From assembly GCF_019464535.1 (NCBI RefSeq), contig NZ_CP080507.1:1980001-2012000 (forward strand): a stretch of DNA of 32,000 nt, read 5' to 3'. Shown piece by piece: positions 3,482 to 29,893 of the stretch (the first letter of the stretch is position 1; each line of letters opens with the position of its first letter). The notes beneath the pieces are model-generated. The model did not search any database. It had not been told where the DNA came from and saw only the letters and a program-made list of their open reading frames with translations. The translations under genes were made by a program, and so were the position numbers. Origin of the DNA: Horticoccus luteus (GTDB lineage: Bacteria; Verrucomicrobiota; Verrucomicrobiia; Opitutales; Opitutaceae).

Positions 3482-3527
3482 CGAACCTGCTGGGCCGAGC
3501 GCGGTCGGTGCGAATAATACAAAGCTT

Positions 3528-12199: not shown

Positions 12200-12287
12200 T
12201 GGACGAGGCAGGACGGCGATTCTGGCGGGCGTGCGGTTTTCGGACTTGGTTTTTACTCGCGCGGGCGTTTCTCTACCCGGTTTTCCT

Positions 12288-14992: not shown

Positions 14993-15001
14993 AGGTCTCC
15001 C

Positions 15002-16300
15002 GTGTTCGGACTCTTCGCCTCCCAGGAAAAAAAGATGCGGGCCAATGCCGGCAACTGGCTGGAGTTGGCCGACAAGGTCTGGCACTACCGGCGTGACCAA
15101 CTCACGCCGCCCGAGGCGAAAGAACTTCTCGCGCGCACCGAGCACTTACGGCAGGCGGTCAAAGCGAAGGCCGACGCCGCCAAACTGAAGCTCGGTATTG
15201 AAGCGTTGGAGCCGGTGCTGCGGCGCGTCGGAGGAAAGATTTATCCGAAATCCTCGTTGGTGGAAAACGTGGAGTTCTTCGTGGTGGCGGCGATCGTCGT
15301 GCTCGGATTCCGCGCGTATTTCGTCCAGCCATTCAAGATCCCGACCAACTCGATGTGGCCGACGTATTACGGGATGACGGCGGAGAATTTTCCGCCCGGC
15401 AGCGATCTGCCGGGACCGATCGCGCGAGCGTTCCGCTTTGTCGCGTTCGGCGCGCAACGAATCGAAGCGGACGCGCCGGTCGAGGGGCAGGTGACGGCGG
15501 ATTTTTTTGAGAGCGGCGGCATGGCCCGGGCCATGGCGTATAAAGTCGTGAGTGGCCGCTCCTGGCTCGTGCTGCCGACGCAGTTGAAGGAATACACGTT
15601 TTACGTGAACGGCGAACCGACCCACGTGAGAGTGCCGCTGGATTTCCACGACGTGGATTCGGTGGTGCAGGAAACCTATTTCGGCGGGCCGGAGAAATTT
15701 GCGTCTTTCGCGGAGCAGCAGGCTCGGTCTGGTCAACCGGAGAAAGGGGTGCTGAAAATCAGCGACCAAGCCGGTTACGCGCGCGTAGTTCGGCTGCCGC
15801 TGGGCAAGCATGTCACGGCCGGAGCTCCGGTCATCCGTTTCGATCTCATGACGGGCGATCAGCTTTTCGTGGATCGGTTCAGCTATAATTTCGTGCGCCC
15901 CTCGGTCGGTTCGGGGTTTGTTTTCCGCACCGGCCACATTCCGGGAATCGCCAACCAGTTCGGCGACCAGTATTACATCAAACGTCTCGTCGGCGTGCCG
16001 GGAGATACCATCGCGATCAGAGATTACCGGCTTTACCGAAACGGCGTGCCGGAGACAGGCGCTGCGGCTTTTGAGAAGAATGCGCAGCGCGTGGAAAAGT
16101 ATCCCGGTTATCGCGCCGAGGGCAGTCTGGCGAACGGCGGCACGATGACCGTGCCCGCGGACGGGTTTCTGGCGTTGGGCGATAATTCGGCGAACAGCGA
16201 GGACGGACGTTTCTGGGGATACGTGCCGGCGAAAGACGCAGTAGGGCGTCCGCTGTTCATCTATTATCCGTTTACGAAGCGCTGGGGACCGGCGAAGTGA
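15002..16300 (+). CDS. lepB: Signal peptidase I (S26), unusually long
   Basis: S26 boxes are present: PTNSMWPTY (Ser), TGDQLFVDRFSY, YYIKRLVGVPGD (Lys) and LGDNSANSEDGRFWG. The start is GTG at 15002 or ATG at 15035. The classic lepA-lepB synteny is conserved. Confidence 0.88.
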   Translation: MFGLFASQEKKMRANAGNWLELADKVWHYRRDQLTPPEAKELLARTEHLRQAVKAKADAAKLKLGIEALEPVLRRVGGKIYPKSSLVENVEFFVVAAIVVLGFRAYFVQPFKIPTNSMWPTYYGMTAENFPPGSDLPGPIARAFRFVAFGAQRIEADAPVEGQVTADFFESGGMARAMAYKVVSGRSWLVLPTQLKEYTFYVNGEPTHVRVPLDFHDVDSVVQETYFGGPEKFASFAEQQARSGQPEKGVLKISDQAGYARVVRLPLGKHVTAGAPVIRFDLMTGDQLFVDRFSYNFVRPSVGSGFVFRTGHIPGIANQFGDQYYIKRLVGVPGDTIAIRDYRLYRNGVPETGAAAFEKNAQRVEKYPGYRAEGSLANGGTMTVPADGFLALGDNSANSEDGRFWGYVPAKDAVGRPLFIYYPFTKRWGPAK

Positions 16301-16573: not shown

Positions 16574-18157
16574 ATGTCTGAACTCTCTCAATCTTCGCCT
16601 GCCACGCTCTGGAACTGGCTGAATCGCCGCGCAGCCGGTGTGCTGCTTCATCCGACCGCCCTCCCGGGCGACGGCGGCGTGGGAACCCTCGGTCACCATC
16701 TGGACGATTTTCTCGCGATTCTGGCCGGGGCCGAGTTCAGCTACTGGCAAGTTTGCCCCCTTGGCCCCACCGGATTCGGCGACTCCCCGTATCAATGTTT
16801 TTCGTCGTTCGCGGGAAATCCCTACCTGATCGACCTCGCGCCGTTGGTTGATCTCCGCCTGCTCAGCGCCGACGCCGTGGCGCCTTTGCAACGCTTGAAC
16901 GCAACGCACGTCGATTTCGGCGCGCTCTACACGGAGAAACGTCCGCTATTGTTTGCCGCTCACGCTGCATGGTCCCGGGATCGGACCCTCGCGCTGCCTT
17001 ACGGGGCGTTTAACGCGTTTCGAGCGCGTCACGAACACTGGCTCGAAGGTTTTGCGCTGTTTTCAGCGCTCAAGGATCATTTCGGCGGCGCCCCTTGGTG
17101 GAATTGGCCCGCGGACGCGCGGTCGTTGGCTGCAGCCAAAAAGTCGAACGTTGCGCGCGTGGTGGCCGAACGCGCGGAAGCTTACGCGTTTATTCAATAC
17201 CTGTTCTTTGGGCAATGGGCTCGCGTGCGGGCGCGCGCGGCTGCACTGGGCATCACGATCATCGGCGACACGCCGATTTTCGCCGCGCTCGACAGCGCCG
17301 ATACCTGGAGCCGGCCGGAGCTGTTTCAACTGGACCCGAAGACGCACGCGCCGCTCGCGGTCGCAGGCTGCCCACCCGATTATTTCTCGGCCGATGGCCA
17401 ACTATGGGGCAATCCTCTCTACGACTGGCCCGTGCATGCCGCCGAGGGCTACGCGTGGTGGCTTGAGCGCCTGCGCGCGAATTTCGACCTCTGCGACGTG
17501 GTGCGTATCGACCATTTTCGAGGGCTGGAGGCGTATTGGTCGATTCCCGCCGGGTCGACGACCGCACGGCCAGGACATTGGGTGCCGGGTCCGCGCATGG
17601 AATTTTTCCGCGCGATCCAAGCCGGGTTGCCGCACGCCAAACTTATCGCCGAGGATCTCGGCTTGCTCACCCCTGAGGTGCTCGACTTGCGCGCGGCAAC
17701 GGGGCTGCCCGGCATGGCGGTGCTGCAATTCGCCTTCGGCGGCGGCGCGGACAATTTTTATCTGCCGCACAACGTCGCTCACAACACCGTCGTCTACCCC
17801 GGCACGCACGACAACGACACCACGCGCGGCTGGTATGAATCCGCGGCGGAAAAAACGCGCGATCATGTGCGCCGGTATTTTCGTGTGAGCGGCGACGATA
17901 TAAGCTGGGATTTCGTGCGCGCCGCCTACGCCTCCACCGCGAATCTCGCCATCGTTCCACTACAGGATTTGCTCAGCCTCGGATCGGAAGCGCGTTTCAA
18001 CCAACCCGGCGAATCGCAAGGCAACTGGCAATGGCGCGTCAGCGCCGATCAGCTCGCTCATCTTGCCGCCGACTCCAGCGGCTACCTGAGCGAACTCGCC
18101 GCTCTCTACGGTCGCAACCGCCCGCCTGCGGCGCCGATCACGCCGCACGCGACTTGA
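16574..18157 (+). CDS. malQ: 4-alpha-glucanotransferase (amylomaltase, GH77)
   Basis: Matches include GVLLHPTALPG, SPYQCFSSFAGNPYLID, VRIDHFRG, IAEDLG and YPGTHDNDT. The product is 527 aa. Confidence 0.9.
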   Translation: MSELSQSSPATLWNWLNRRAAGVLLHPTALPGDGGVGTLGHHLDDFLAILAGAEFSYWQVCPLGPTGFGDSPYQCFSSFAGNPYLIDLAPLVDLRLLSADAVAPLQRLNATHVDFGALYTEKRPLLFAAHAAWSRDRTLALPYGAFNAFRARHEHWLEGFALFSALKDHFGGAPWWNWPADARSLAAAKKSNVARVVAERAEAYAFIQYLFFGQWARVRARAAALGITIIGDTPIFAALDSADTWSRPELFQLDPKTHAPLAVAGCPPDYFSADGQLWGNPLYDWPVHAAEGYAWWLERLRANFDLCDVVRIDHFRGLEAYWSIPAGSTTARPGHWVPGPRMEFFRAIQAGLPHAKLIAEDLGLLTPEVLDLRAATGLPGMAVLQFAFGGGADNFYLPHNVAHNTVVYPGTHDNDTTRGWYESAAEKTRDHVRRYFRVSGDDISWDFVRAAYASTANLAIVPLQDLLSLGSEARFNQPGESQGNWQWRVSADQLAHLAADSSGYLSELAALYGRNRPPAAPITPHAT

Positions 18158-19034
18158 GAAACGCCGCTACGCGCTCGACCGCTTCAGGTGCGTCCTCGAG
18201 CAGATAGTGGCCGGCGTCGTTGTAGCGCTCCACTTGGGCCGTCGGCAGACGGCGCTGCCACTCGGCGAGAAAATGCGGATCGAAACAAAAATCGCGCATG
18301 CCCCAGGCGAGGAGCACTTGCTTGTCCGCCAAGGCCGCGACGCCGGCTTCCGCCCGTTGCAACGCCGCCCAACTGCGATGGCCGGGCTTCATCGGAATAT
18401 CGCGCACGAAGGCGTTGACGGCGACGCGGCTCGCCCACGAGGAATACGGCAGCAAATACCCGCGCTTCTCCATCGGTGTGAGCGAGCGCCGATGCATGGC
18501 CATACTCGTGGCCGGCGCGGCAAAACCGTTGGCGCCGCGGACCAGCAGCGGACCAATCACGGGCAACTTGCAGAGCGCGATGCGGGCGGGAATCCGGTTC
18601 AGCGGAAACGCCGCGGTGTTCATCACGACGACCCGGTCGAGTTGCGCTGCATGGTCCGCCGTCCAGCCCATGCCAATCGCCCCGCCCCAATCATGAACCA
18701 CCAGGTGCACCTTTTTTAAACCCAGGTGGATCACCAAAGCTTCAACGTCGCGCACGCGGCCGGCCAGCGTATAGTCGTAATCTTCCGGTTGGTCGGAGAG
18801 CCCCATACCCACGTGGTCCGGCGCCACGCAACGCATCGTCGGAGCGAGTTCTTGAATCAGGCGACGGTAAAAAAACGACCACGTCGGATTGCCATGCAAC
18901 ATGAGCACGGCCTCGTCGCAACGCGGTCCTTCGTCGACATAGCTCATCGTCGCGCCGCCGGGCGTGGAAAAATGCCGCGGCTCGAACGGATACGCCGCGC
19001 GCAACCAGTCGGGAACTTCGCGATGCGTCACCAT
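18138..19034 (-). CDS. oleB: Alpha/beta hydrolase, haloalkane-dehalogenase-like (OleB-type)
   Basis: Motifs are LHGNPTWSFFYR, APDHVGMGLSD and the nucleophile elbow with Asp, VVHDWGGAIG. Its start overlaps the stop of the OleA-type gene by 7 nt. The OleB assignment rests on family and context, not on alignment. Confidence 0.6.
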   Translation of the reverse strand: MVTHREVPDWLRAAYPFEPRHFSTPGGATMSYVDEGPRCDEAVLMLHGNPTWSFFYRRLIQELAPTMRCVAPDHVGMGLSDQPEDYDYTLAGRVRDVEALVIHLGLKKVHLVVHDWGGAIGMGWTADHAAQLDRVVVMNTAAFPLNRIPARIALCKLPVIGPLLVRGANGFAAPATSMAMHRRSLTPMEKRGYLLPYSSWASRVAVNAFVRDIPMKPGHRSWAALQRAEAGVAALADKQVLLAWGMRDFCFDPHFLAEWQRRLPTAQVERYNDAGHYLLEDAPEAVERVAAFLKSRAA

Positions 19035-20053
19035 TCGAGTGCCAGCATCAGGCAGTTCAACCCGCTGCCGATTCCGAGCAATCCCACGCGATCGCCTTCG
19101 CGCACCGCGCCCGCACCCACGGCGGCCGAAAGTGTGGCGGGCAGCGCGACGGAGCCGGTGTTGCCGAGCGTTTCAAAAGTCGAAAAGTCCTTCGCGAGAT
19201 CGAGTCCCAGCGCGTCGTAGAGTGCGCGGCGATGCGTGCGCCCGACCTGATGGCAAATGAAGCGATCGAAGTCGCTGCCCTGCTCCGCCGCGAAACGCGT
19301 CCACGTGTTCTTCGCGAGCGCTACGCCTGCGACGAGCAATTGTTCCGCATCGGTCTGCATGGCGAGCGCATCGGCCCCATGGCTATCGCCCTGGCAAAGT
19401 TCGCTGTGTTCGGTCGCCGCGCCTGCCACGCCGCCCAGCAAACGATGTGCGGGGCCGCGCACGAGATCGCGATGACACACCATCGCCGCCACCGCGCCGG
19501 AGCCGATCGTGAGATTGGCGAAGAACGGTTTGATTTCGTTTCGCGAGAGCGGTTGTTCCAGGAGCGTGCGCAGCGTCTGCTCCACGAGGGGGCGCCCATT
19601 TTCCCCGGCGACCACCATTGCGCAACGAATCTGCCCCGACTCGATCATCGCCGCGGCGACGCAAAGTGCATTGAGGAATCCGAGGCACGCATTCGACACA
19701 TCGAAAATTTGCGTCGTCGCGGGCAGCCCGATTTTGCGGTGAGCGAAGGAGGCCGTGGCCGGTTCGAGCATGTCGCGCGACACCGCCGCGTGGATGAAAA
19801 GTTCCACGTCGGCCGCGCGCAAATTCGATTCTGCCAGCACCGCGCGTCCCGCTGCCGCACTCGCATCCGACGGCCGCCAGCCTTCCGGCCACAGGCGGCG
19901 TTCACGAATGCCGGTCATCAACTCCAGCCGCCCGGCGGGCAATTTCAAACGCTCGTAAAGCGGCCTCAGGCGCTCTTCGATTTCGTTCGAAGTTAAAACC
20001 TCGTCGGGCATCGCGACCGCGATGGATTCCAGGCAGACGTGAGTGAAACGCAT
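19028..20053 (-). CDS. oleA: OleA-type thiolase (FabH-like, head-to-head Claisen condensing enzyme family)
   Basis: The ATG at 20053 gives MRFTHVCLES, although the ORF opens at 20158. Motifs track what I recall of Xanthomonas OleA. These are LTSNEIEERLRPLYERL, AVSRDMLEPATAS (the Glu-base motif), FDVSNACLGF (Cys), ICHQVGRTH, GNTGSVALP and the C-terminal LLGIGSGLNCLMLALEW. It differs from housekeeping FabH (HQAN, GNTSAAS). Confidence 0.7.
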   Translation of the reverse strand: MRFTHVCLESIAVAMPDEVLTSNEIEERLRPLYERLKLPAGRLELMTGIRERRLWPEGWRPSDASAAAGRAVLAESNLRAADVELFIHAAVSRDMLEPATASFAHRKIGLPATTQIFDVSNACLGFLNALCVAAAMIESGQIRCAMVVAGENGRPLVEQTLRTLLEQPLSRNEIKPFFANLTIGSGAVAAMVCHRDLVRGPAHRLLGGVAGAATEHSELCQGDSHGADALAMQTDAEQLLVAGVALAKNTWTRFAAEQGSDFDRFICHQVGRTHRRALYDALGLDLAKDFSTFETLGNTGSVALPATLSAAVGAGAVREGDRVGLLGIGSGLNCLMLALEW

Positions 20054-20060
20054 GACGTCT

Positions 20061-20885
20061 TTAACGCTCCGGCCGCATCGCGAGCCGGATGATTTCCTGA
20101 TCGAAATAATTGCTGCCCAGCCCGGCGTCGACGACGAGCGTCGTTCCATTGATGCCACTGCTGCGTTCGCTCAAGAGGAAGACCGCGGCATCGGCTACTT
20201 CCTGTGTCGCGAGATTGCGTTTTCGAAACGTGAGTTTTTCCGCGTAGAGATAGCTTTCAATGTAGCCCGGAATGCCCGCGGAGGCGCTCGTTTTCAGCGG
20301 CCCGGCGCCGATGACGTTCACGCGAATTTCGCTCGTCGCTGACAAGGACTTGGCGAGGAAACGCGTGGCGGATTCGAGGGCGGCCTTGATGGGCCCCATG
20401 TAGCCGTAGTTGTCGGGCGTGACCTGCAACGATGAAATGCCGATGGTCACGATGGAGGCGTGGCGCGCGAGATGGGGTTTGAACGCCCGGGTGATCTCCA
20501 CGAGGGAGAACGCCGACACCGCCGTGGCTTGGAGAAAGTCGGTCCGTTTGGTCTCGTCGAACGGACGGAATCCCTCGCTGTAATTGGCAAACGCGATCGA
20601 GTGCACGAGCCCGTGCAAAGGGGCCAAACCTGCGGCTGCCACTTCGGCGGCGAGACGCGCCGCGGCGCCTTCCTCTTCCACGTCGCAGACGAAGACCGGC
20701 TTGTCGGCGAGCAAGGTCTCCAGCGATTTACGACGCGCTTCCGAGCGCACGCTGTAAATGACGCGGGCGCCCTGCTCTTCCAAGGTCTTTGCGATGTGCC
20801 AGGCGACGCTTTTGCGGTTGGCCACACCGAGGACGAGAAACGTCTGGCCGGCGAGATGGAGGAAGTCTGGCATCGCGTGGCTCAC
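20061..20885 (-). CDS. fabI: FabI-type enoyl-ACP reductase (SDR)
   Basis: Matches are LVLGVANRKSVAWHIAKTL, VHSIAFA, the Tyr-x6-Lys motif in NYGYMGPIKAALE, and VNVIGAGPLKT. The GTG at 20885 overlaps the fabZ-type stop by 4 nt. An alternative ATG lies at 20873. Confidence 0.8.
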   Translation of the reverse strand: MSHAMPDFLHLAGQTFLVLGVANRKSVAWHIAKTLEEQGARVIYSVRSEARRKSLETLLADKPVFVCDVEEEGAAARLAAEVAAAGLAPLHGLVHSIAFANYSEGFRPFDETKRTDFLQATAVSAFSLVEITRAFKPHLARHASIVTIGISSLQVTPDNYGYMGPIKAALESATRFLAKSLSATSEIRVNVIGAGPLKTSASAGIPGYIESYLYAEKLTFRKRNLATQEVADAAVFLLSERSSGINGTTLVVDAGLGSNYFDQEIIRLAMRPER

Positions 20886-21343
20886 GCGTTCGGCGCGGGA
20901 GCTTGGCCGTCAGGGGTTTTCCACGCGACGGAGAAATCGACATTCAACACCCGCGTGCCATTGGCCTTCTTGATGCTGCCGGTGAGCATGGTGAAGCCGC
21001 CGAGGGTGGTTTTTTCCTTCACCGCGAGAAGAATGGTATCGCCCGGATAAATCGGGCTCCGGAACCGCACATCGCTTATTTTCGCAATCAAGGGCACACC
21101 CTCTCCCGGTTTTCCGCCCGCGGCTTGCGCTTTCAATGCCATGTAGCACGCCGCGGTCTGGAAGACCGCCTCGCACAGCAACACGCCAGGCGTGATCGGA
21201 GCACCAGGATAATGCCCGCGGTAGAAATCCTCGTCGGCCCGCCATGTGCGTTTGGCCGTCAATCCGTCTGCCTCTTGGGTGACAATTTCGTCGACAAACA
21301 AAAACGGCGGACGGTGCGGAATGAGGTCGGTGACGGTGGGCAT
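20882..21343 (-). CDS. fabZ: FabZ/FabA-type 3-hydroxyacyl-ACP dehydratase (hotdog fold)
   Basis: The ATG is at 21343, although the ORF opens at 21472. Matches are IPHRPPFLFVDEI and FYRGHYPGAPITPGVLLCEAVFQT, which carry the catalytic His and Glu. It starts 1 nt after the upstream gene's stop. Confidence 0.82.
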   Translation of the reverse strand: MPTVTDLIPHRPPFLFVDEIVTQEADGLTAKRTWRADEDFYRGHYPGAPITPGVLLCEAVFQTAACYMALKAQAAGGKPGEGVPLIAKISDVRFRSPIYPGDTILLAVKEKTTLGGFTMLTGSIKKANGTRVLNVDFSVAWKTPDGQAPAPNA

Positions 21344-21344
21344 G

Positions 21345-22799
21345 TTAGGAAGCGGCGGCGGGAGCGTGGGGTTTGGCGGCGTAGAGGACCTTGTCGATTT
21401 TGTTGGCGACGATAACGCCATAATTAATCGTGCCGAGCCAGCCCGACATGATGATGCCAACGGAGCCGGCATGATAGAGTCCGGGCAGCATGGCGGGCAA
21501 TTCCATGGAGACTTTCAGGCCTTCGAATTTGGTGCCAAACGAAGTGCCGCCGGTATGCGTTGTGTAGCGCTCGATCGTCCGCGGCGTGGCGGCCTCCTTC
21601 CAATCGATTTTTTCGCCCACCCCGGGGATAAACGTCTCCAACGCGGCCAGTGACTCGTCGATGAGCCGCTGCTTGTTGCGCTCATAGTCCTCCTCGCTCA
21701 ACCCCGCCCAGTCCGGATAACAGCCATTTAACGACGCGACGACTGTGTAGCGTTCCGAGCCGGGGCGCGTGTCGGGATAATAGACGGAAAACGTGCGACT
21801 CGTCGTGCGAAAGTCCGTGAGTTCCGTGCTGCTGAATTCGGCACTCGCCGAGGTGAAGACGAGATCGCCGATGTGCGGAATCGATTCCCCTTTTCGAATG
21901 CCGAAATAGACTTGGCAGGAGCTCGAGTTAATCCGCACCGCCTGCGCCTCGGCCACGTAGTCGGAGGGGAAGTTTTCTGCGCCCGCGAGACGAAAGATCG
22001 TGTTCTTAATGTTCGCGTTCGAGAGCACCGCCTTCGCGCGGATGATCCGCCCACCTTTGGCGACGATGCCGGCGACGACTTTGTGGCCGTTGCGCTCCTC
22101 CACGAGGATGCGTTCAACGAGCACATGCTTGCGGCATTCAACGCCGTTCCTTTTCAGCTCTGCGATCATCTTCGCGATGAGGAGATCTGATCCGCCCCGA
22201 AAGGTGTAGACCCCGGAGCCCATGAAATTCGAAAACACGATGCCGAACGTGATCGCTGGGTCCTCGAGCGTAGAGCCGTTGGCGTAAGCGATTGGCTCCA
22301 TCAGCAAACGGTGCACATCCTTTCGTCCCGGGAAAAAGCGTTCCAGCATCTCGCCCGTCGTTTCGGGATTGTTGTCGTAGAAATTCATCGACCGCAGGTG
22401 GTCGTAGAACTTCTCGACCACGGTGCGTTCGAGGCGGAATTGCTCGAGGAGCACGCGGGTGTAGTCCTCACGGGTGAACGTCGTCCAGACGTCCATCTGC
22501 GGATTCACAAATCGGATGTCTTTCAGTTGCACGATCGAGTCGGCGATCTCCTTCGTCCAATACTTGCGGCACGATTTGATCATGCCCACCGGGAAGCCAT
22601 GCAGCGAAATATCGAAAATATGCCCGCCCTTGCGCGTGAACCAAGTGGCCAACCCGCCGTATTGGTAATGGTGCTCCAAGAGGAGCACACGGTGGCCGGC
22701 TTTCCCCAGATAATTGGACCCCGTCAATCCGCCCAAGCCACTGCCGATGACGATTACGTCATACTCGTCAGCAACACCTTTGAGCCAGTCATACGCCAT
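21345..22799 (-). CDS. CrtI/phytoene-desaturase-family NAD(P)/FAD-dependent oxidoreductase (copy 2)
   Basis: The ATG at 22799 gives MAYDWL..., although the ORF opens at 22838. The dinucleotide fold is [38 protein letters not shown]. The C-terminal flavin-contact motif is [16 protein letters not shown]. The substrate is unknown. Confidence 0.75.
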
Positions 22800-22814
22800 G
22801 GAAACGGAGCAGTG

Positions 22815-22846
22815 AAAACCCCTCGCGTCTGAGCGCAAGGGGTTTT
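22815..22846 (-). terminator. Hairpin + T-run on the minus strand (candidate terminator/attenuator) between DUF3300 and the CrtI-like copy 2 gene
   Basis: The plus strand reads AAAACCCCT-CGC-gtctga-GCG-ca-AGGGGTTTT. On the minus strand the stem ends in TTTT. It lies 16 nt upstream of the ATG at 22799. Confidence 0.45.
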
Positions 22847-22870
22847 GCGTCCATCATTTGGCGCGGGCCG

Positions 22871-24229
22871 CTAACGGTCTTTATCCGTTCGATTGTCGCG
22901 ACGTGCGTCCGCCCTCTCCCCTCGATCCGGCGGAGGCGCGCTCCGCGGCGGCGGCGCGGTCACCGGCCGCATCGCCGGCGGCGGCGCCACCGGAGCAGGA
23001 CGCGGTTGCGGCACAAAAGCCGGGCGCGGCGTCGGCGTTAGCTCCGGGGCAGCGGGCGCGCGGACGGTGGCGCTGGGACCGGGCGCGCTCACCACGGGCC
23101 GCGTGGTGTTGAAATGAAGATTGCCGCGGTTGCTATCGGGCCGCGGAGAAACATCGGGCCGCGACGGGCGCACCGGGCCGCCAACGGACGGCGGTCGCGC
23201 GATCGTGGGCGCAGGAGGCATTTTCGAATCCGCGTTGCCGCTGCTGTGCGGCTGATCGCCGCCTCGTGACCACCGTCGCACGGAAGATGCGCCGTTTGGA
23301 TTCGGTTGAGCCGTGGCAGGAGCAAGGCGGGCATTACCCCAACTCGCCGCCGGCCGGGCGGGATGCGCCTCGTGCTCGACCGGGCCAGGCGGCAGCGCCC
23401 GCGGTCCGACCACACGATCGCCATAACGAAAACCGGGGCGCGGCCGCACGCGGTTGGCCGGTGGACGCCAACGTTGCGGTGTGCCGTGGGGCGGCCCGAC
23501 GATCACCGGACCGGCGTGATGCCGCACGTGATAATCGTGTCGGCGCCAGTCCACGCCGCGCCAGAGCACCCGGCGATGCCAGTCCAAATCGAAATCCAGC
23601 CACGACCCGACCGAATAACCGATGCCAAACGTTAAAAACGGCCCGGCGTAGCCAAACGGCGGCGGTCCGTAAACGAGATCATAATTGTAACGCGGCACAT
23701 AAATCACGTCGGGCGTGGCCGGTTCGATGTAGATGATCTGATCACGCACGACCACTTCCTGTTGCGGAGTATCCTTCAACGCACCAGTGGCGCGCGCTTG
23801 AGTGCGCATACGCTGCACGGCGTTCATCACGTCGGTGGACTGCGCGGCGAACGCGAGGCCGAGCTCACGCGTCCATTCGAGGTTTTCATCCATCCATTTG
23901 ACGACCTCGGGATAGTGCACCAGCGCCTTCACGCTTTCATCCCATGGCTGATCTTCGATCGCCGCCGAGCCATCACTGTTCGCCAGAAACCGCGCTGCGA
24001 GCGTGACATCGGTCGGCACCGTGGAGGCCGGCAGGATCAATGCGACCAAGACATCGGGATAGAGCGCGATGGGGGCCACGAGCTTGTCCAATTCCTCGGG
24101 CGTTCGCGGGGATTCATCGCTGACGTCCTGCGCATTCACAAATCCGAGAGAAAACGCCGCACAAACGGCGAAGAGAAACCGAGTTAGCGCAAAGCGAGAA
24201 CGGCGGACGCGGGTCGGAGCGAGGGGCAT
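22871..24229 (-). CDS. Secreted DUF3300-family protein with long Pro/Arg/Ala-rich C-terminal tail
   Basis: I recognise the DUF3300 signature LDKLVAPIALYPDVLVALILPASTVPTDVTLAARFL...WDESVKALVHYPEVVKWM. The signal peptide is RRSRFALTRFLFAVCAAFSLGFVNA. I prefer the ATG at 24229, with alternatives at 24277 and 24298. The last ~200 aa are low-complexity P/R/A-rich. Confidence 0.75.
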   Translation of the reverse strand: MPLAPTRVRRSRFALTRFLFAVCAAFSLGFVNAQDVSDESPRTPEELDKLVAPIALYPDVLVALILPASTVPTDVTLAARFLANSDGSAAIEDQPWDESVKALVHYPEVVKWMDENLEWTRELGLAFAAQSTDVMNAVQRMRTQARATGALKDTPQQEVVVRDQIIYIEPATPDVIYVPRYNYDLVYGPPPFGYAGPFLTFGIGYSVGSWLDFDLDWHRRVLWRGVDWRRHDYHVRHHAGPVIVGPPHGTPQRWRPPANRVRPRPGFRYGDRVVGPRALPPGPVEHEAHPARPAASWGNARLAPATAQPNPNGASSVRRWSRGGDQPHSSGNADSKMPPAPTIARPPSVGGPVRPSRPDVSPRPDSNRGNLHFNTTRPVVSAPGPSATVRAPAAPELTPTPRPAFVPQPRPAPVAPPPAMRPVTAPPPRSAPPPDRGERADARRDNRTDKDR

Positions 24230-24325
24230 GCTTAGGGGCGACACGACTTTCGGGGGTTTGTGCGCAAAATATGTCATACCCGATGAGACGCGACTCATTC
24301 CCGCCGATTACGGTATTCCCCGCCC

Positions 24326-25771
24326 TTACCCCGCGCGCGGCTGCAGAATGTGGTAATTCGCCATCGAGATCCCACTCAGCATCGCGCCGACGATGCCCAA
24401 AAACCCTTGGTCCGTGCCGCAGAGATAAACATTGGCCAACGGCGTGTTCCCGTCGCGTTTTTTATCCGGCGAACCGTAGATGGCTCCGCCGAAGTGCCCG
24501 GTGAACGTCGTGATCGTGCGCGGCGTAAACATGTCCGTCGCCACGGTGGCTTTGGCGAGAACGTCATCTTCCACCGCCGGCAGAAATCGGCGGGCGCTTT
24601 GCTGCACCTCGGAAAACCAACGCGTTTTCTGCTCTCGATAGACATTCTCCGGCAGCGTGGCCCAGCGGTCGTAGTTGGCCAGGCAGGTGCAGCGCAGCAG
24701 GCCTTCGGGCAGATGCTGCCCTGCTTCAAATACGAAATTATTCGGCAGACAAATCACGCCGCTGCGCACGTCGACCGCCTCGTCAGGGCGGACGTAGTTG
24801 AATTCCGGCGAGTCGTTGAAAAACACAATCGTGTCCTCGCCCCACCCGAGCGCCGCAGGCTCTTGATTCAGCACGGTAATCGTCTCGACGAACGACAGCC
24901 GGCCCACCGCAGGTAGCTGGCGGCCTCTGATTTCGGTCTCCGGTGGCTGAAACAACGCCAGCGTTTCTGGGCCGCCGATCGAGGATAACACATGGTCGGC
25001 GGTGACCTCCGCACCGTCATCGAGCACGAGCGTTGTCGCGCGTCCATCTTGGGCGATGATCCGGCTCACGCCGCATTTCATACGCCGTTCGCCGCCCGCC
25101 GCCCGAAATTTGTCCAGCAACACGCGCAACACAACGCGCACACCCTCGAGCGGGCGGGCAAACCCTTCGAGAAAGAGCGCCTTGAACATGATCGCGAACT
25201 GCCCGAACTCCATGTCGCGCTCCTGTGCGCTGCCATAATACATGAGCGGGCAAAACAACATCTCCTCGAGGAGCGGGTCCGTTACAAAGTCGCGGACGAC
25301 CGCGCGGGCGCTGCGCGGCTGCGCATTGAGCGACACATCGTCGTAACTGCGAAGATAGGCGACCAGGCGAGCGAAACCATCCCGCTGCGCCGGGAATCGC
25401 GCCGCCACCTCGCTTTCGAAGAGCGCAAAGTCATTCGTAAACCGTAGCTTCACCTCGCCGCGCGGCCCAAAAGCGATTCGCGAACCGCGTTGCGGACAAA
25501 GGGCCAACTCATCGCGATCAATGCGCAACTGCCGCAGAATTTTCCCCAGCGGCGTTCCCTTCACACCGGGCGGCACGTAGTTCGTCATCGCGTGCAGGCC
25601 GACATCGAATTTTCGCCCCGCGATACTGTAGAAACTGTTCAGCCCGCCGACGGCGTTGTGCCGCTCGAAGATACAGACGCGCCGGCCAAAATGCGCGAGT
25701 CGGATGCCCGCCGCCAAGCCCGACATGCCGGCTCCGATGATCGCCACGTCGTAATGGGAGCTCGTGTTCAT
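24326..25771 (-). CDS. CrtI/phytoene-desaturase-family NAD(P)/FAD-dependent oxidoreductase (copy 1)
   Basis: The dinucleotide fold is YDVAIIGAGMSGLAAGIRLAHFGRRVCIFERHNAVGGL. The C-terminal motif is VYLCGTDQGFLGIVGAMLSG. It is highly diverged from copy 2 outside these motifs. Confidence 0.75.
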   Translation of the reverse strand: MNTSSHYDVAIIGAGMSGLAAGIRLAHFGRRVCIFERHNAVGGLNSFYSIAGRKFDVGLHAMTNYVPPGVKGTPLGKILRQLRIDRDELALCPQRGSRIAFGPRGEVKLRFTNDFALFESEVAARFPAQRDGFARLVAYLRSYDDVSLNAQPRSARAVVRDFVTDPLLEEMLFCPLMYYGSAQERDMEFGQFAIMFKALFLEGFARPLEGVRVVLRVLLDKFRAAGGERRMKCGVSRIIAQDGRATTLVLDDGAEVTADHVLSSIGGPETLALFQPPETEIRGRQLPAVGRLSFVETITVLNQEPAALGWGEDTIVFFNDSPEFNYVRPDEAVDVRSGVICLPNNFVFEAGQHLPEGLLRCTCLANYDRWATLPENVYREQKTRWFSEVQQSARRFLPAVEDDVLAKATVATDMFTPRTITTFTGHFGGAIYGSPDKKRDGNTPLANVYLCGTDQGFLGIVGAMLSGISMANYHILQPRAG

Positions 25772-25789
25772 GCGGCGATGGCGGCCAAT

Positions 25790-25814
25790 AAAAAAGGCCG
25801 GGCGCAGCCCGGCC
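25790..25814 (-). terminator. Intrinsic terminator immediately after the ACP gene
   Basis: The minus strand reads GGCCGGGC-tgc-GCCCGGCC-TTTTTT, a perfect 8-bp GC stem (25796-25803 / 25807-25814) followed by a 6-T run (25790-25795). It lies 24 nt after the ACP stop and 18 nt before the next ATG. Confidence 0.7.
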
Positions 25815-25838
25815 TCGGTGCGCGGATTTCGGTGCGGT

Positions 25839-26099
25839 TCAGCCCTGCTTCTGGGCGTTGAACTTCGGCGTAAGATACGCCGCGGAACTGTCGAGTGAGG
25901 CCAGTTGCTGGTAATCCGCCTCCGGCACCTCGATGCCGTGGCGTTTGCGCAGCTCCATCACGATGTCGAGAAAGTCCATGCTATCGAGCTGGAGTTGGTC
26001 GCGCAGGCGCACGTCCGGTTTCACATTCGAAAGGTCTTCATCGGGCGCGATGTCCGCGATGATATCGAGCACGACCTGCTTGCATTCGTCGGTGGTCAT
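25839..26099 (-). CDS. Acyl carrier protein, specialised (non-AcpP) type
   Basis: The product is 86 aa. The phosphopantetheine site is LQLDSMDFLDIVMELRKRHGIEVP. This resembles AcpXL/NodF-like dedicated ACPs (LDSLDFLDIV) rather than housekeeping AcpP (GADSLDTVELV). Confidence 0.85.
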   Translation of the reverse strand: MTTDECKQVVLDIIADIAPDEDLSNVKPDVRLRDQLQLDSMDFLDIVMELRKRHGIEVPEADYQQLASLDSSAAYLTPKFNAQKQG

Positions 26100-26120
26100 A
26101 GGAATTAGGCGAAGAATCAG

Positions 26121-27359
26121 TCAGGGGACAAAACGTTTCACAATCAACGTGGAATTGATGCCGAGCATCCCGAATGAATTGTTCAGGATCACGTCGACCT
26201 GCCCCACCCGCTGCGGTTCGTTCAACACCAGGTTGGGCAACGCACATTGCGGGTCGAGGGCATCGACGTTGATCGTGGGATGCACCACCAAGTCATCGAA
26301 CGACGGCAGATTGCCCGCGAGTTCCAGTGCGCCCGCCGCCCCCATGCAGTGGCCGATAAAACTCTTGGTGTTGTTGATGTAAGTATCAGGACAACCTTCG
26401 CCAAACACGGCGCGAATCGCCTCGCACTCCTGAATGTCGCCCAGCGGCGTCGCCGTGGCGTGCGTGTTGACGATATGGACATCGCGTGGCCGGAGGCCGG
26501 CATGGGCGATCGACTTGCGCACGCATTCAGCCTGCCGCACCGGATTGGGCAGCACGTAATCGCTGGCGTCTGAGTTCACCGCATAGCCCGCAATCTCCGC
26601 GTAAATCTTCGCTCCCCGGGCCAAGGCGTCGTCAAGCCGCTCCAGCGTATAAAGCCCCCCGCCTTCGGATACGACGATGCCGTTGCGCGCCAGATCAAAC
26701 GGCCGTGAAGCCTTCGCGGGATCGTCGTTGGTGGCGAGCGCGCCCTGCGACTTGAAGCCGGCGAAAATCCCAAACGTGTGAATGCTTTCGCTCACGCCAC
26801 CGCAAATCGCGAAATCCACCTCACCGAGGCGCAACATTTGCGTGGCGTGGATCAGGCCCATGTTCCCCGCCGCGCAGGCCGCGCCGATCGTGTAAGCCGG
26901 ACCCGTCACGCCAAGATTGAGCGACGTCTCTCCCGCCGGGTTGTTGGCGACGGTGCGCGGGTTGTGATAATGGGACCAGAACTTGGTGTCGTAGTTGAAC
27001 TTCGAGATGTTAAAAATCTCATTCTCCGTCTCGACGTTGCCGTGTTCGGTGCAGCCGATGTAAATGCCCACGCGATCCTTCGGAAGCCCCGCGAAGTTGA
27101 CCTGACTGTCGGCCAGCGCCTCGCGCGCGCAGTAAATCGAAATCGAGCCCGCGCGCGTGCCTACGCGAACTTCCTTTTTCGTCTGATACTTCAGCGGGTC
27201 GTAATGGCAGACGCCGGCCAGAAGTGAGCCCATGTAACGCACATCGAGACGTTCGATGCCGGAAACGCCCGTCAGCAAATTACGACGAAACTCGGCCAAG
27301 GTGTTGCCGTTGGGAGCCGTGAGACCGACCCCGGTGATGACGATGCGCGGGAGCTGCAT
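26121..27359 (-). CDS. Beta-ketoacyl-ACP synthase, KAS I/II (FabF/FabB-like) elongating type
   Basis: The ATG at 27359 gives MQLPRIVITGVGL and a 412-aa product. The 670-aa ORF in the track is an upstream run-on antisense to galE. The Cys-His-His triad sits in TIGAACAAGN, NTHATATPLGD and KSFIGHCMGAAG. Confidence 0.88.
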   Translation of the reverse strand: MQLPRIVITGVGLTAPNGNTLAEFRRNLLTGVSGIERLDVRYMGSLLAGVCHYDPLKYQTKKEVRVGTRAGSISIYCAREALADSQVNFAGLPKDRVGIYIGCTEHGNVETENEIFNISKFNYDTKFWSHYHNPRTVANNPAGETSLNLGVTGPAYTIGAACAAGNMGLIHATQMLRLGEVDFAICGGVSESIHTFGIFAGFKSQGALATNDDPAKASRPFDLARNGIVVSEGGGLYTLERLDDALARGAKIYAEIAGYAVNSDASDYVLPNPVRQAECVRKSIAHAGLRPRDVHIVNTHATATPLGDIQECEAIRAVFGEGCPDTYINNTKSFIGHCMGAAGALELAGNLPSFDDLVVHPTINVDALDPQCALPNLVLNEPQRVGQVDVILNNSFGMLGINSTLIVKRFVP

Positions 27360-27434
27360 GAAAAGAGAGGCCGAAATCGCTAGCCAACCCCGCCGTGAAA
27401 GCAATACAAGCCTCGCCGTCTTTTGCCTAAGCTT

Positions 27435-28439
27435 ATGAACGTTCTGGTCATCGGAGGTGCCGGTTACATTGGAAGTCATTGCGTGCGACAGCTTGTCGCC
27501 GCCGGACACCGCCCCGTCGTGCTCGATAATCTCGTCTACGGTCATCGCGCCGCCGTGCCTGCCGGTGTGCCGCTTCACCAAGTCGACCTTGGCGACGAGT
27601 CCGCGGTCGGCCGCATCCTGGTCGACGAAAAGATCGAGCTGGTGATGCACTTCGCCGCTTATTGCTACGTCGGCGAATCTGTCACGGATCCGCTGAAATA
27701 TTATTTCAACAACGTGGTGGCGCCCGTCCATCTGCTGAATGCGATGCTCACCGCGGGCGTGAAGAAATTCGTTTTCTCCTCCACGTGCGCCACCTACGGC
27801 GTGCCTGCGTCCCTGCCGATCGTCGAGACGCTGCTCCAAGCCCCGATCAATCCCTACGGGCAGACGAAGCTCGACGTCGAAAACCTCCTCAAGAGCCTCG
27901 CCCAAGCGCACGGATTGAGTTTCGCCGCCTTCCGCTACTTCAACGCCGCCGGTGCCTCGGAAGATGCATCCATCGGTGAAGACCATGACCCGGAAACCCA
28001 CCTCATCCCTGTCGCCATCGACGTTGCGACGGGCAAGCGCCCTCACCTGCAGCTTTTCGGAACCGATTATCCCACCCCGGACGGCACCTGCCTGCGAGAC
28101 TACGTGCATGTCGACGATCTGAGTCGCGCGCACATCGCTGCATTCGATCGGCTGGCCACGCCCGGCACGCAGCTTTTCTACAATCTCGGCACCGGCCGCC
28201 CGTCATCGAACCGCGAAGTCATACGCGCGGTGGAAAAAGCCACGGGCCGCACGATCACGGTGATCGAGAGCCCGCGTCGCGCGGGCGATCCGCCGGCGTT
28301 GTTCGCCGATTCCAGCAAAGCCCAACGCGAACTCGGTTGGACGATCAAGTTTCCCGATATCGACTCCATCGTCGCCACTGCGTGGAAATGGCACCGCGCG
28401 CATCCGCAAGGCTACGCTGATCGCGCGCCGCGCCAGTAA
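27435..28439 (+). CDS. galE: UDP-glucose 4-epimerase
   Basis: The ATG at 27435 gives MNVLVIGGAGYIGSH. Matches are YVGESVTDPLKYYFNNV, SSTCATYG, PINPYGQTK (YxxxK), FRYFNAAGA, DGTCLRDYVHVDDL and RRAGDPPALFADSSKAQRELGW. Confidence 0.9.
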   Translation: MNVLVIGGAGYIGSHCVRQLVAAGHRPVVLDNLVYGHRAAVPAGVPLHQVDLGDESAVGRILVDEKIELVMHFAAYCYVGESVTDPLKYYFNNVVAPVHLLNAMLTAGVKKFVFSSTCATYGVPASLPIVETLLQAPINPYGQTKLDVENLLKSLAQAHGLSFAAFRYFNAAGASEDASIGEDHDPETHLIPVAIDVATGKRPHLQLFGTDYPTPDGTCLRDYVHVDDLSRAHIAAFDRLATPGTQLFYNLGTGRPSSNREVIRAVEKATGRTITVIESPRRAGDPPALFADSSKAQRELGWTIKFPDIDSIVATAWKWHRAHPQGYADRAPRQ

Positions 28440-28447
28440 GAACGTCG

Positions 28448-29893
28448 CTATTGCCCGGCTCCGCCGCGCAGTCGCCTCCACGTGGCCCTGGAAACGCCGA
28501 GTTTTCCCGCCGCCGCCTCCTCGTCGCCGTCCTCAGCCTTGAGCGCGTGCTCCACGAGGCGCTTTTCCACGGCCGCCCAGACGCCTGATTCGTCGTTCGC
28601 CAGCTCCGTATAAAGCGCGGCGATCGCCCTTGAGATGCTCGACTCTGCATCCGCCGCAGGCTCGGTGGACACGGGTGCTGGCTGGGACGTTGGCTCGGCG
28701 CGGTCGCGAACTTCCGCGGGCAGATCCTTCAGCAAAATGGAGTCCCCTTGGGCGATGACGGCGCTGCGGTAGATGACGTTTTCCAACTCTCGCACATTCC
28801 CCGGCCAAGGATAGCGCGTGAGCACCGCCAAGGCTTCGGGAGAAACTTTGCCGACCCGTGTCTTCCTGCTTTTGACGAGATTCTGGAGGCAGAAATCGAC
28901 GATTTGCGGAATGTCTTCCGCTCGATCGCGCAACGCCGGCATGCGGATACGCACGACATTAAGCCGGTAGTACAAATCTTCGCGAAACGTCTTCGCTTTA
29001 ACCATCGCCTCGAGATCCTTGTTCGTCGCGGCCAAAATCCGGACGTCCACCCGGATGGTCTCGCTTCCGCCGACGCGCTGAATGTCGCCCTGCTGCAGCA
29101 CGCGCAGGATTTTCGTCTGCGTGGCGAGCGCCATGTCGCCGATCTCATCGAGGAAAATCGTGCCGCCGTCGCATAACTCAAATTTTCCGATGCGTTGCCC
29201 GGTTGCGCCGGTGAACGCACCTTTTTCGTGTCCGAACAGCTCGCTTTCGATCAGGTTGTCAGGAATCGCCGCGCAGTTGACCGCGATGAACGGTTTGCTG
29301 GCGCGGTGGCTGTGCTTCCAGATCGAGCGGGCGACGAGCTCTTTGCCCGTGCCGCTCTCTCCCGTGATCATCACCGTGACATCGCTCGCCGTCACCTGCC
29401 CGATCGTTTTGAAGACCTCCTGCATCGCCGCCGAATTCCCCACGATGCCTTCCTTGAAATCGTCGCTCGAAACGGTCGGCTTGTAATCTCCCACGGCGCG
29501 CAAATCGGCATGGGTCTTCAATGCGTTCTCGACCAACGCCAACACCTTGTCGGGCGCAAACGGCTTCATGACGTAATCGAACGCCCCGTATTTCATCGCC
29601 TCGATCGCCGTCTGTGCCGTGCCGAATGCCGTCATGAGCACGACGAGCTGCTTCGGGTTGACGGAACGGAGGTGCTGCAAGGTTTCGATGCCGCTCATGC
29701 CGCCCATGCGCACGTCGAGAAAAATAAGATCCGGCGGCGGACCCTTCTTTAGGACGGCCACGCCTTGTTCACCGCTGCCCGCTTCGGTCACCAGAAAGTG
29801 CCGCGAGGCCAGCACCCGCGTGAGCGAGTAGCGGATCTCCGCGTCGTCGTCGATGATGAGAATGGTGGGCGGCTTGAGCTCGGGCATGCGCAA
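28448..29893 (-). CDS. Sigma-54-dependent response regulator (NtrC family: REC + AAA+ + Fis-type HTH)
   Basis: The REC domain has ILIIDDD...LIFLDVRMGGMSG. The AAA+ domain has GESGTGKE, the sigma-54 contact loop EKGAFTGA, and TIFLDEIGD. The C-terminal HTH is AAAGKLGVSRATWRRL. No kinase gene is adjacent. Confidence 0.9.
   Translation of the reverse strand: MRMPELKPPTILIIDDDAEIRYSLTRVLASRHFLVTEAGSGEQGVAVLKKGPPPDLIFLDVRMGGMSGIETLQHLRSVNPKQLVVLMTAFGTAQTAIEAMKYGAFDYVMKPFAPDKVLALVENALKTHADLRAVGDYKPTVSSDDFKEGIVGNSAAMQEVFKTIGQVTASDVTVMITGESGTGKELVARSIWKHSHRASKPFIAVNCAAIPDNLIESELFGHEKGAFTGATGQRIGKFELCDGGTIFLDEIGDMALATQTKILRVLQQGDIQRVGGSETIRVDVRILAATNKDLEAMVKAKTFREDLYYRLNVVRIRMPALRDRAEDIPQIVDFCLQNLVKSRKTRVGKVSPEALAVLTRYPWPGNVRELENVIYRSAVIAQGDSILLKDLPAEVRDRAEPTSQPAPVSTEPAADAESSISRAIAALYTELANDESGVWAAVEKRLVEHALKAEDGDEEAAAGKLGVSRATWRRLRGGAGQ

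Follow-up and report, generated by a model that had tools for sequence, protein, structure and literature searches.

We analyzed a 32,000-nucleotide stretch of the genome of Horticoccus luteus (Verrucomicrobiota, Opitutaceae; contig NZ_CP080507.1, positions 1,980,001 to 2,012,000), referred to here as the window, which carries a gene cluster that combines genes of fatty-acid synthesis with genes of the Ole pathway. Nine consecutive open reading frames (ORFs) occupy the minus strand from 18138 to 27359 (Table 1). They code for a beta-ketoacyl-ACP synthase (KAS), an acyl carrier protein (ACP), a flavin adenine dinucleotide (FAD) enzyme (Flv1), a DUF3300 protein, a second FAD enzyme (Flv2), a FabZ-like dehydratase (DH), a FabI-like enoyl reductase (ER) of the short-chain dehydrogenase/reductase (SDR) type, OleA and OleB. 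DUF3300 is the one of the nine that is not a conserved member. Spacers were recomputed with gene starts chosen by support from family alignments and amount, from KAS to OleB, to 21, 67, 27, 71, 1, -4, 7 and -7 nt. An earlier reading of the letters alone (the original prediction) had listed nine minus-strand genes with their spacers and domains; all ORFs were found at the coordinates it gave, and Pfam and NCBIfam assigned the same domains to all nine products. A domain search with both collections also confirmed that ketoreductase (KR), malonyl/acyl transferase (AT), AMP-ligase, thioesterase and exporter genes are missing from the cluster. A housekeeping malonyltransferase, FabD, which passes the fabD equivalog cutoff, is encoded 5 kb away at 12231-13193. 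A 670-aa ORF (26121-28133, minus strand) was discarded as an over-extended KAS call, as it crosses the divergent galE gene and its extension has no family support; the true KAS start is the ATG at 27359. The G+C content of the window is about 61% and base composition runs evenly through the cluster without a break, so that a recent horizontal transfer into this genome was rejected.

Table 1. Features of the cluster in the window and amino acid identity of the products to their counterparts in L087, a Halobacteriovorax-type locus.
Feature	Position	Strand	Domain or model	Description	Identity to L087
KAS (412 aa)	26121-27359	-	PF00109, PF02801	FabF-like beta-ketoacyl-ACP synthase, predicted dedicated paralogue	62%
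ACP (86 aa)	25839-26099	-	PF00550	predicted dedicated acyl carrier protein	61%
Hairpin and U tract	25794-25816	-		ACP-Flv1 spacer; terminator-like or putative attenuator	
Flv1 (481 aa)	24326-25771	-	PF01593, PF13450	CrtI-fold FAD enzyme	47% (L087 Flv1 lies between ACP and oleA)
DUF3300 protein	22871-24298	-	PF11737	signal-peptide-like N-terminus, Pro-rich tail; passenger	
Flv2 (484 aa)	21345-22799	-	PF01593	CrtI/CRTISO-like FAD enzyme	56% (L087 Flv2 heads Flv2-KR-DH-ER)
FabZ-like (153 aa)	20882-21343	-	PF07977	FabZ/ApeI-like 3-hydroxyacyl-ACP dehydratase	35%
FabI-like (274 aa)	20061-20885	-	PF13561	FabI-like SDR enoyl reductase	51%
OleA (341 aa)	19028-20053	-	NF006720	non-decarboxylative Claisen thiolase	47%
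OleB (298 aa)	18138-19034	-	PF00561	haloalkane-dehalogenase-like alpha/beta hydrolase, beta-lactone decarboxylase family	45%

OleA is the first and OleB the last enzyme of the Ole pathway. The OleA protein of the window scored 437 bits on NF006720, exceeding the cutoff of 285. Its best solved relatives were 12 sequences aligning over the full length with an E-value of 2e-66, while FabH proteins followed at about 1e-21. These 12 PDB entries carry only the database label '3-oxoacyl-[ACP] synthase III'; we take 3ROW, 4KU2 and others among them to be the OleA structures of Xanthomonas campestris. Matches to the StlD/DarB family model (2e-6) and to DarB (6e-4) were weak by comparison. Glu117, Cys143, His285 and Asn315 were invariant in 59 orthologues, and the first of these serves as the base in the non-decarboxylative Claisen reaction (PMC7064751). 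An OleA from Halobacteriovorax marinus was experimentally active in the screen published there (PMC7064751). For OleB, the best models were those of haloalkane dehalogenases, at scores under their cutoffs, and dehalogenases were also its PDB relatives. All 54 orthologues retained the nucleophile (HDWG) and the histidine (GH(Y/F)), and the protein shares 45% identity with its counterparts from canonical oleABCD operons in two distant loci described below (L084 and L087). In the window oleB overlaps oleA by 7 nt. The NF006720 score, the PDB matches and the four invariant residues demonstrate that the KASIII-like gene is of the OleA type and not a FabH, as had been predicted, and its alpha/beta-hydrolase neighbor, taken for the OleB partner from the start, is an OleB orthologue with intact catalytic residues.

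The four proteins resembling enzymes of fatty-acid synthesis all retain their active sites. KAS reached 315 bits on the fabF model TIGR03150 (cutoff 494); its best PDB relatives were FabF proteins (E 1e-72), and its Cys-His-His triad was invariant in 36 orthologues. ACP scored at best 38 bits on models with cutoffs of 66-106, indicating that it is not AcpP, and its serine motif LDSMD was invariant in 40 orthologues. The FabZ-like protein obtained 90 bits on the FabZ model (cutoff 113) and 86 bits on TIGR01750 (cutoff 155). Its orthologues also matched ApeI-like and ApeP-like models, and the catalytic His and Glu were invariant in 62 of them. The FabI-like protein, whose Y-x6-K motif was invariant in 66 orthologues, reached at best 178 bits on the FabI equivalogs (cutoff 370) and shares 46-51% identity with the ER encoded in the Flv2-KR-DH-ER modules found elsewhere. 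Since all four scores lie far under the housekeeping equivalog cutoffs, KAS, ACP and the FabZ-like and FabI-like proteins are, as judged from sequence, dedicated paralogues and not housekeeping enzymes. This agrees with the original prediction, which had inferred a dedicated pathway.

Both flavoenzymes are remotely similar in sequence to carotenoid desaturases and isomerases. Flv1 scored 55.6 bits on carotenoid isomerase, 54.3 bits on CrtD and 52 bits on crtI_fam, where the cutoffs are 587, 580 and 238 bits, respectively. Its AlphaFold model (mean predicted local distance difference test, pLDDT, 82.5) found its best folds in the carotenoid desaturases 4REP, 3KA7 and 4DGK. More than 8000 homologues of Flv1 exist in the database; the best 120 share 73-99% identity with it (73-81% across Opitutaceae), and the named ones among these belong to Opitutaceae or Verrucomicrobia. 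Flv2, which is 24% identical to Flv1, scored 102 bits on carotenoid isomerase and 71 bits on crtI_fam, under the same cutoffs. Its model (pLDDT 85, predicted template modeling score 0.85) was closest to 4REP, with a template modeling score of 0.76. The Flv2 family is narrow, with about 180 clusters at 50% identity (E<1e-30), and a plasmid search returned no homologue. Identity of the two proteins to solved carotenoid desaturases and isomerases is 14-17%; the N-terminal FAD motif is common to them. In locus L009 (6992-9943), a metagenome-assembled genome (MAG) of Verrucomicrobiota, Flv1 is present in two tandem copies that are 71-72% identical to Flv1 of the window. A natural fusion of Flv2 to a FabZ/ApeI-like domain (P0123, 625 aa) is encoded in locus L086 at 2209-4086 and followed by a FabI-like gene, which places Flv2 in ACP-thioester chemistry. 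The radical S-adenosylmethionine (SAM) gene after P0123 was considered as a link to the fatty-acid clusters of Desulfotalea and Kuenenia. It is KamA/EpmB-like, common in Bacteriovoracaceae and probably unrelated.

A strong hairpin with a T tract, GAGGCCGGGCTGCGCCCGGCCTTTTTTATT, directly follows the ACP gene. Its stem comprises ten pairs, eight of them G-C, and is followed by TTTTTTATT. The element GGCCGGG-loop-CCCGGCC-T(4-7) is repeated in the ACP-Flv1 spacers of many Opitutaceae loci (hairpins in L001, L005, L010, L023, L034, L039 and L056), and the same place in L087 is taken by an unrelated hairpin with T4. The hairpin may be a conserved attenuator that sets the expression of KAS and ACP against that of the downstream genes.

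To describe the distribution of the cluster, one genome per species was scanned with an Flv2 profile, which yielded at least 597 loci, and the best 80 were analyzed further. All 80 belong to Opitutales (Opitutaceae, Puniceicoccaceae, Coraliomargaritaceae, strain DG1235) or to unclassified Verrucomicrobiota. The series Flv2-FabZ-FabI-OleA-OleB was intact in 48 of the 62 Opitutales loci with enough downstream sequence. Directly upstream of it, KAS-ACP-Flv1 was present in 29 of 47 loci that could be counted for this part, all 29 of Opitutaceae type. The neighborhood check thus confirmed the predicted co-conservation in relatives. Among these 29 loci the gap between Flv1 and Flv2 was at most 167 nt in 16 and contained an insert of 0.9-2.3 kb in 13. 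The short gap in 16 of 29 loci indicates that the cluster is basically an operon of eight genes without an insert. A DUF3300 homologue occupied the gap in only 2 of the 80 loci, the slot being otherwise empty or filled with unrelated genes. DUF3300 was therefore rejected as a pathway member and is considered a passenger; of the nine-gene cluster initially proposed, eight genes stand as one conserved system. The slot itself (22800-24325 in the window) is a variable insertion site, which in L001 (11447-13579) holds GYF_2 and AP-endonuclease genes.

Flv1 or Flv2 was also encountered alone among unrelated genes (L002 10001-11440, L008, L060, L074-L078, L081 and L082). A search around Flv2 of distant Opitutales for further genes of lipid metabolism gave unrelated recurrent neighbors, such as HD phosphohydrolase, cyclophilin, a nucleoside transporter and CstA. 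The flanks of the cluster in the window are ordinary: GalE (divergent), MalQ (convergent), an NtrC-like regulator, LepA, signal peptidase and FabD. In many Opitutaceae the synteny of the cluster with FabD-LepA-signal peptidase (12231-16300), MalQ (16574-18157), and GalE and the NtrC-type sigma-54 activator (27423-29893) is kept. GalE passes the galE equivalog with 408 bits; it was rejected as a hidden OleD, since it scored 58 bits on the OleD model against a cutoff of 580.

Far Flv2 relatives in a representative library, and subsequently a search with OleC of L084, led to loci in other lineages. L084 lies on a 2.48-Mb contig of 43.6% G+C and encodes an Flv2 that is 40% identical to that of the window (P0138). 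Here, Flv2-KR-DH-ER is located 4 kb from a canonical OleA-OleB-OleC-OleD operon. Another relative, P0122, likewise heads Flv2-KR-DH-ER. The top 120 matches to L084 OleC were exclusively of Bdellovibrionota and Planctomycetes type. They bore the name olefin beta-lactone synthetase or fatty acid CoA ligase family protein and came from Bacteriovorax, Halobacteriovorax and Planctomycetes. Five Bdellovibrionota-type loci were opened (L087, L089, L090, L091 and L092). All five contained KAS-ACP-Flv1-OleA-OleB-OleC-OleD as one tightly packed operon, followed after 3-6 kb by Flv2-KR-DH-ER on the opposite strand. For OleC of L087, NF006754 is passed and the two olefin beta-lactone synthetase models come next; for OleD of this locus, the 2-alkyl-3-oxoalkanoate reductase models come first. 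Eight of the nine genes thus belong to an extended ole cluster found in two or more phyla, with 35-62% identity between the products of the window and those of L087 (Table 1). The Opitutales version has DH-ER in one operon with OleA-OleB, unlike the Bdellovibrionota-type loci. The gene arrangement is far beyond chance, as it recurs in dozens of Opitutales species and its orthologues stand beside oleABCD in another phylum. The proposal that a dedicated chain-building set feeds a head-to-head condensation is strongly backed by these orthologues in or next to complete oleABCD operons.

The five Bdellovibrionota-type clusters contain two further conserved genes. A gene of 214-246 aa precedes KAS and, in two of these loci, gave weak helix-turn-helix matches (TrmB or HTH_5). 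The other, after oleD, codes for a protein of roughly 700 aa that belongs to no Pfam family and has a signal-peptide-like N-terminus (4507-5166 and 14149-16269 in L087). Homologues of the two were found neither in the window nor in L084. On plasmids, a search for canonical ole clusters returned Streptomyces-type thiolases only, none of them in an ole context.

We interpret the locus, with a probability of roughly 0.55, as the Opitutaceae form of an extended ole cluster in which accessory modules supply the precursor to the Ole enzymes. The accessory genes sum to a private elongation cycle (ketosynthase, KS; ACP; DH; ER) and two flavoenzymes, with KR added in other lineages and FabD shared. Such a private set is needed only if the chain is unusual, and its presence therefore suggests an unusual acyl chain. 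We infer the following division of labor. The dedicated KAS, ACP, FabZ-like DH and FabI-like ER would run a private type II elongation cycle, for which malonyl transfer would be borrowed from the nearby housekeeping FabD and ketoreduction from a FabG encoded elsewhere. Meanwhile, the two CrtI-fold flavoenzymes would place new C=C bonds in the chain held by the ACP, or shift existing ones, in a flavin-dependent, oxygen-independent manner. OleA would then take this special chain, which on such a scheme would probably be polyunsaturated, directly from the dedicated ACP and condense two copies of it. OleD and OleC, presumably encoded elsewhere in Opitutaceae, and OleB would complete the conversion to a long-chain (poly)olefin of the membrane. 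A dedicated ACP at the side of OleA would make a thioesterase or ligase unnecessary, comparable to the OleA that draws 16:4 from the Pfa ACP.

Enzymes with the CrtI fold carry out desaturation or isomerisation of C=C bonds. Flavin-dependent migration of double bonds is known from the linoleate isomerase of Propionibacterium acnes, which has the same fold, and from IDI-2 and FabX. In Pfa synthases, FabA-like domains provide the trans-2 to cis-3 and trans-2 to cis-2 isomerisations. Speculatively, these two reactions might be those of the two flavoenzymes. That precursor supply and a polyunsaturated product go together is a tentative extension of our interpretation. KAS-ACP-Flv1 and Flv2-(KR)-DH-ER might, in this extended form, constitute an uncharacterised flavin-dependent, oxygen-independent type II synthase for polyunsaturated acyl chains that replaces Pfa non-orthologously. 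Insertion or migration of double bonds by the CrtI-fold enzymes could then conceivably generate a 16:4-type chain on the cluster's own ACP, to be passed to OleA and converted to C31:9-type hydrocarbons. The same pathway is a possible, if doubtful, match for the one suggested for Desulfotalea in 2009 and, if the idea is extended, for the initial stage of ladderane synthesis.

Several observations weigh against the supply of a precursor to a complete Ole pathway by this locus. No oleC, an AMP-binding gene, is present in the 32-kb window. A tblastn search with OleC and OleD of L084 and L087, run on the window and on 92 loci, gave no match in the window itself and none in the 80 Opitutales loci up to 10 kb from the module, and Opitutales loci are devoid of the module KR found in other lineages. 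The description of the cluster as nearly self-contained did not hold, as oleC, oleD and the module ketoreductase are missing locally. Moreover, Flv2 was not followed by the full FabZ-FabI-OleA-OleB series in 14 of the 62 loci (11 with Flv2 alone, three partial) and one locus had Flv1 alone, so that the flavoenzymes may act independently of Ole. As Flv1 or Flv2 stand alone in some Opitutales genomes, the modules can be dispersed or partly lost. They are optional and not universal to ole, since a planctomycete OleC locus had neither accessory module nearby. The only hint that pfa genes are absent from Opitutaceae is that Verrucomicrobia go unmentioned in PMC3098273. As far as their sequences go, the flavoenzymes may carry out desaturation, isomerisation or saturation. 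On the other side, oleC and oleD are expected elsewhere in this genome because surveys report oleABCD and olefin production in Verrucomicrobia (PMC7158056) and oleC in an Opitutaceae MAG (PMC10176705). Two surveys of ole genes list no Opitutae entries in their supplements.

If the chemistry of the flavoenzymes took place after the condensation, the FAS-like set would supply ordinary or chain-length-specific chains, and Flv1 and Flv2 would desaturate the finished olefin or ketone beside its central bond to give a polyene. The closest folds (4REP and 4DGK) are indeed enzymes that desaturate long hydrocarbons, CrtI-type enzymes are established to extend existing double-bond systems, one of which is offered by the Ole product, and Flv1 stands immediately before oleA in the Bdellovibrionota operons. 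Nevertheless, we regard this tailoring as unlikely: the Flv2::FabZ fusion and the fixed order Flv2-(KR)-DH-ER tie Flv2 to ACP-thioester chemistry, Flv1 shares an operon with KAS and ACP, and a private elongation set would be superfluous for ordinary chains.

The genes might also provide an oxygen-independent path to unusual monounsaturated membrane fatty acids, linked to ole through shared membrane adjustment. This possibility appears rather improbable given that KAS-ACP-Flv1 is translationally packed into the oleABCD operon in all five Bdellovibrionota-type loci and that DH, ER, OleA and OleB overlap or abut in Opitutales (-4, 7 and -7 nt in the window). The dedicated ACP is strongly unlike AcpP, which argues against its feeding phospholipid acyltransferases. 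A core function of this kind would suit the at least 597 species-level loci and their very high conservation, as well as the genomes in which Flv2 or Flv1 lacks adjacent ole genes. FabX of Helicobacter is a known flavoenzyme precedent. Opitutaceae contain C16:1 w5c and iso-C15:1 w9c (PMC5303756).

Alternatively, the Ole pathway of Opitutaceae might be truncated. With oleC and oleD not within 10 kb in any of the 80 Opitutales loci, the 2-alkyl-3-keto acid formed by OleA could decarboxylate to a long-chain ketone, and OleA alone is known to give ketones in vivo (PMC3122158; PMC6463001). A variant, in which DH and ER turn this acid into an alpha-branched acid and the OleB-like hydrolase serves as thioesterase or decarboxylase, is equally doubtful. 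Both are distinctly improbable, since OleB has retained its nucleophile and histidine and is 45% identical to the OleB proteins of complete operons; the only OleB substrate known to us is the product of OleC. The survey reports of oleABCD with olefins in Verrucomicrobia and of oleC in an Opitutaceae MAG (PMC7158056; PMC10176705) also speak against truncation. Finally, plain housekeeping FAS II genes placed beside ole genes by accident, which would fit the domain content (KS, ACP, DH, ER) and the nearby FabD, are a highly improbable explanation, as all four proteins are well under equivalog cutoffs and their orthologues accompany oleABCD in another phylum at 35-62% identity, with both flavoenzymes always included.

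Bacteria make long-chain membrane olefins mainly by the Ole pathway, which is of interest for biofuels. To our knowledge, a source of polyunsaturated Ole precursors is established only for bacteria with a Pfa synthase. The precursor-supply interpretation points to a specific candidate, open to testing, for another route to such precursors, independent of oxygen and of Pfa, because a private KS, ACP, (KR), DH and ER together with two flavoenzymes are tied to ole genes in two phyla. Opitutaceae and Halobacteriovorax provide culturable test beds for the question raised in 2009, namely the role of phytoene-desaturase-like enzymes in fatty-acid clusters, which is relevant to the unsolved synthesis of ladderanes in anammox bacteria. 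Even without polyunsaturation, the defined ole gene set is enlarged, and the published context rules (oleABCD, oleBC, oleACD) miss this whole class of clusters.

The cluster was compared with known systems. CrtI, CrtD and CRTISO share the fold and the N-terminal FAD motif with Flv1 and Flv2. However, the latter score only 52-102 bits against family cutoffs of 238-587, and other carotenoid genes are missing from the window. Aryl-polyene and flexirubin systems resemble the cluster in having a discrete KS and ACP and a dehydratase that matches ApeI-like and ApeP-like models, and the module KR of other lineages resembles FlxB. In contrast to these and to dialkylresorcinol clusters, no KS-chain-length factor (CLF) pair, adenylating enzyme, thioesterase, LolA/MMPL export genes or DarA/DarB are present here.

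Alike in composition are the clusters of Kuenenia stuttgartiensis, which are ladderane candidates, and of Desulfotalea psychrophila, with a FabF paralogue, ACP, FabZ and amine-oxidase/CrtI-like flavoenzymes. D. psychrophila contains C31:8/C31:9 hydrocarbons without a polyketide-synthase-type route to polyunsaturated fatty acids and has type II fatty-acid synthesis (FASII) clusters with phytoene-dehydrogenase-like genes (PMC2649909). On this ground, Rattray et al. 2009 proposed an anaerobic desaturase extension of FASII (PMC2649909), the same idea as here of polyunsaturated chains being built without oxygen. In vivo, the homologues of anammox bacteria do not function as phytoene desaturases (PMC4790861). 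The clusters differ from ours in their radical SAM and SAM methylase genes, and the link to ole was not made in PMC2649909. Radical SAM genes were found neither in the window nor in orthologous loci, except for the probably unrelated KamA-like gene of L086. Moreover, FabZ and KAS of the window match ordinary FabZ and FabF better than they match 7QV0, 8AYB and 9S5H. The database labels of these entries name no organism; we take 7QV0 and 8AYB to be amxFabZ and 9S5H to be an anammox KS. The comparison with ladderane loci drawn in the original prediction therefore holds for composition, and not for FabZ and KAS, which are nearer to ordinary enzymes than to the presumed anammox ones.

The suggestion that the cluster matches no known pathway had to be revised, as the locus in part matches the Ole pathway and is an extension of it. 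With the OleABCD pathway of Xanthomonas, Shewanella and Micrococcus it shares OleA and OleB orthologues with all catalytic residues, but OleA-OleB are here apart from oleC/oleD and joined to FabZ-like and FabI-like proteins, KAS, ACP and two flavoenzymes. Described OleA gene contexts are oleABCD, oleBC fusions and oleACD, and the context survey makes no mention of FAD-enzyme, ACP-gene or KS neighbors (PMC7064751). Among the papers searched, none linked OleA with phytoene-dehydrogenase-like or FASII genes, and none combined hentriacontanonaene (C31:9) with Verrucomicrobia, Opitutaceae or Planctomycetes. Sukovich et al. 2010 reportedly obtained C31:9 from Opitutaceae bacterium TAV2, which would fit the precursor-supply interpretation.

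A parallel is seen in the pfa-ole clusters of Shewanella, Photobacterium and Geobacter bemidjiensis, which produce hentriacontanonaene. In G. bemidjiensis, pfaDABC-oleABCD-pfaE lie in tandem and C31:9 is made (PMC4882568), and Shewanella OleA uses only Pfa-derived 16:4, apparently straight from the Pfa ACP domains and without FadD (PMC6463001). There, as is proposed here, a dedicated chain-builder beside oleABCD feeds OleA via its own ACP, and the catalytic inventory (KS, ACP, KR, DH and ER) is similar. Here, by contrast, the proteins are discrete type II enzymes and not multidomain megasynthases, CLF and AT are absent, ER is of the SDR type as opposed to PfaD, and the two CrtI-fold flavoenzymes have no Pfa counterpart. 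All window proteins are single-domain, and the score on the PfaA model was 85 bits against a cutoff of 1010, indicating that the cluster does not encode a Pfa synthase. By analogy, the accessory genes hold the place that pfa genes hold in other olefin producers. Ole itself is already known; what is new is a variant of the pathway, whose accessory chemistry could be new as well.

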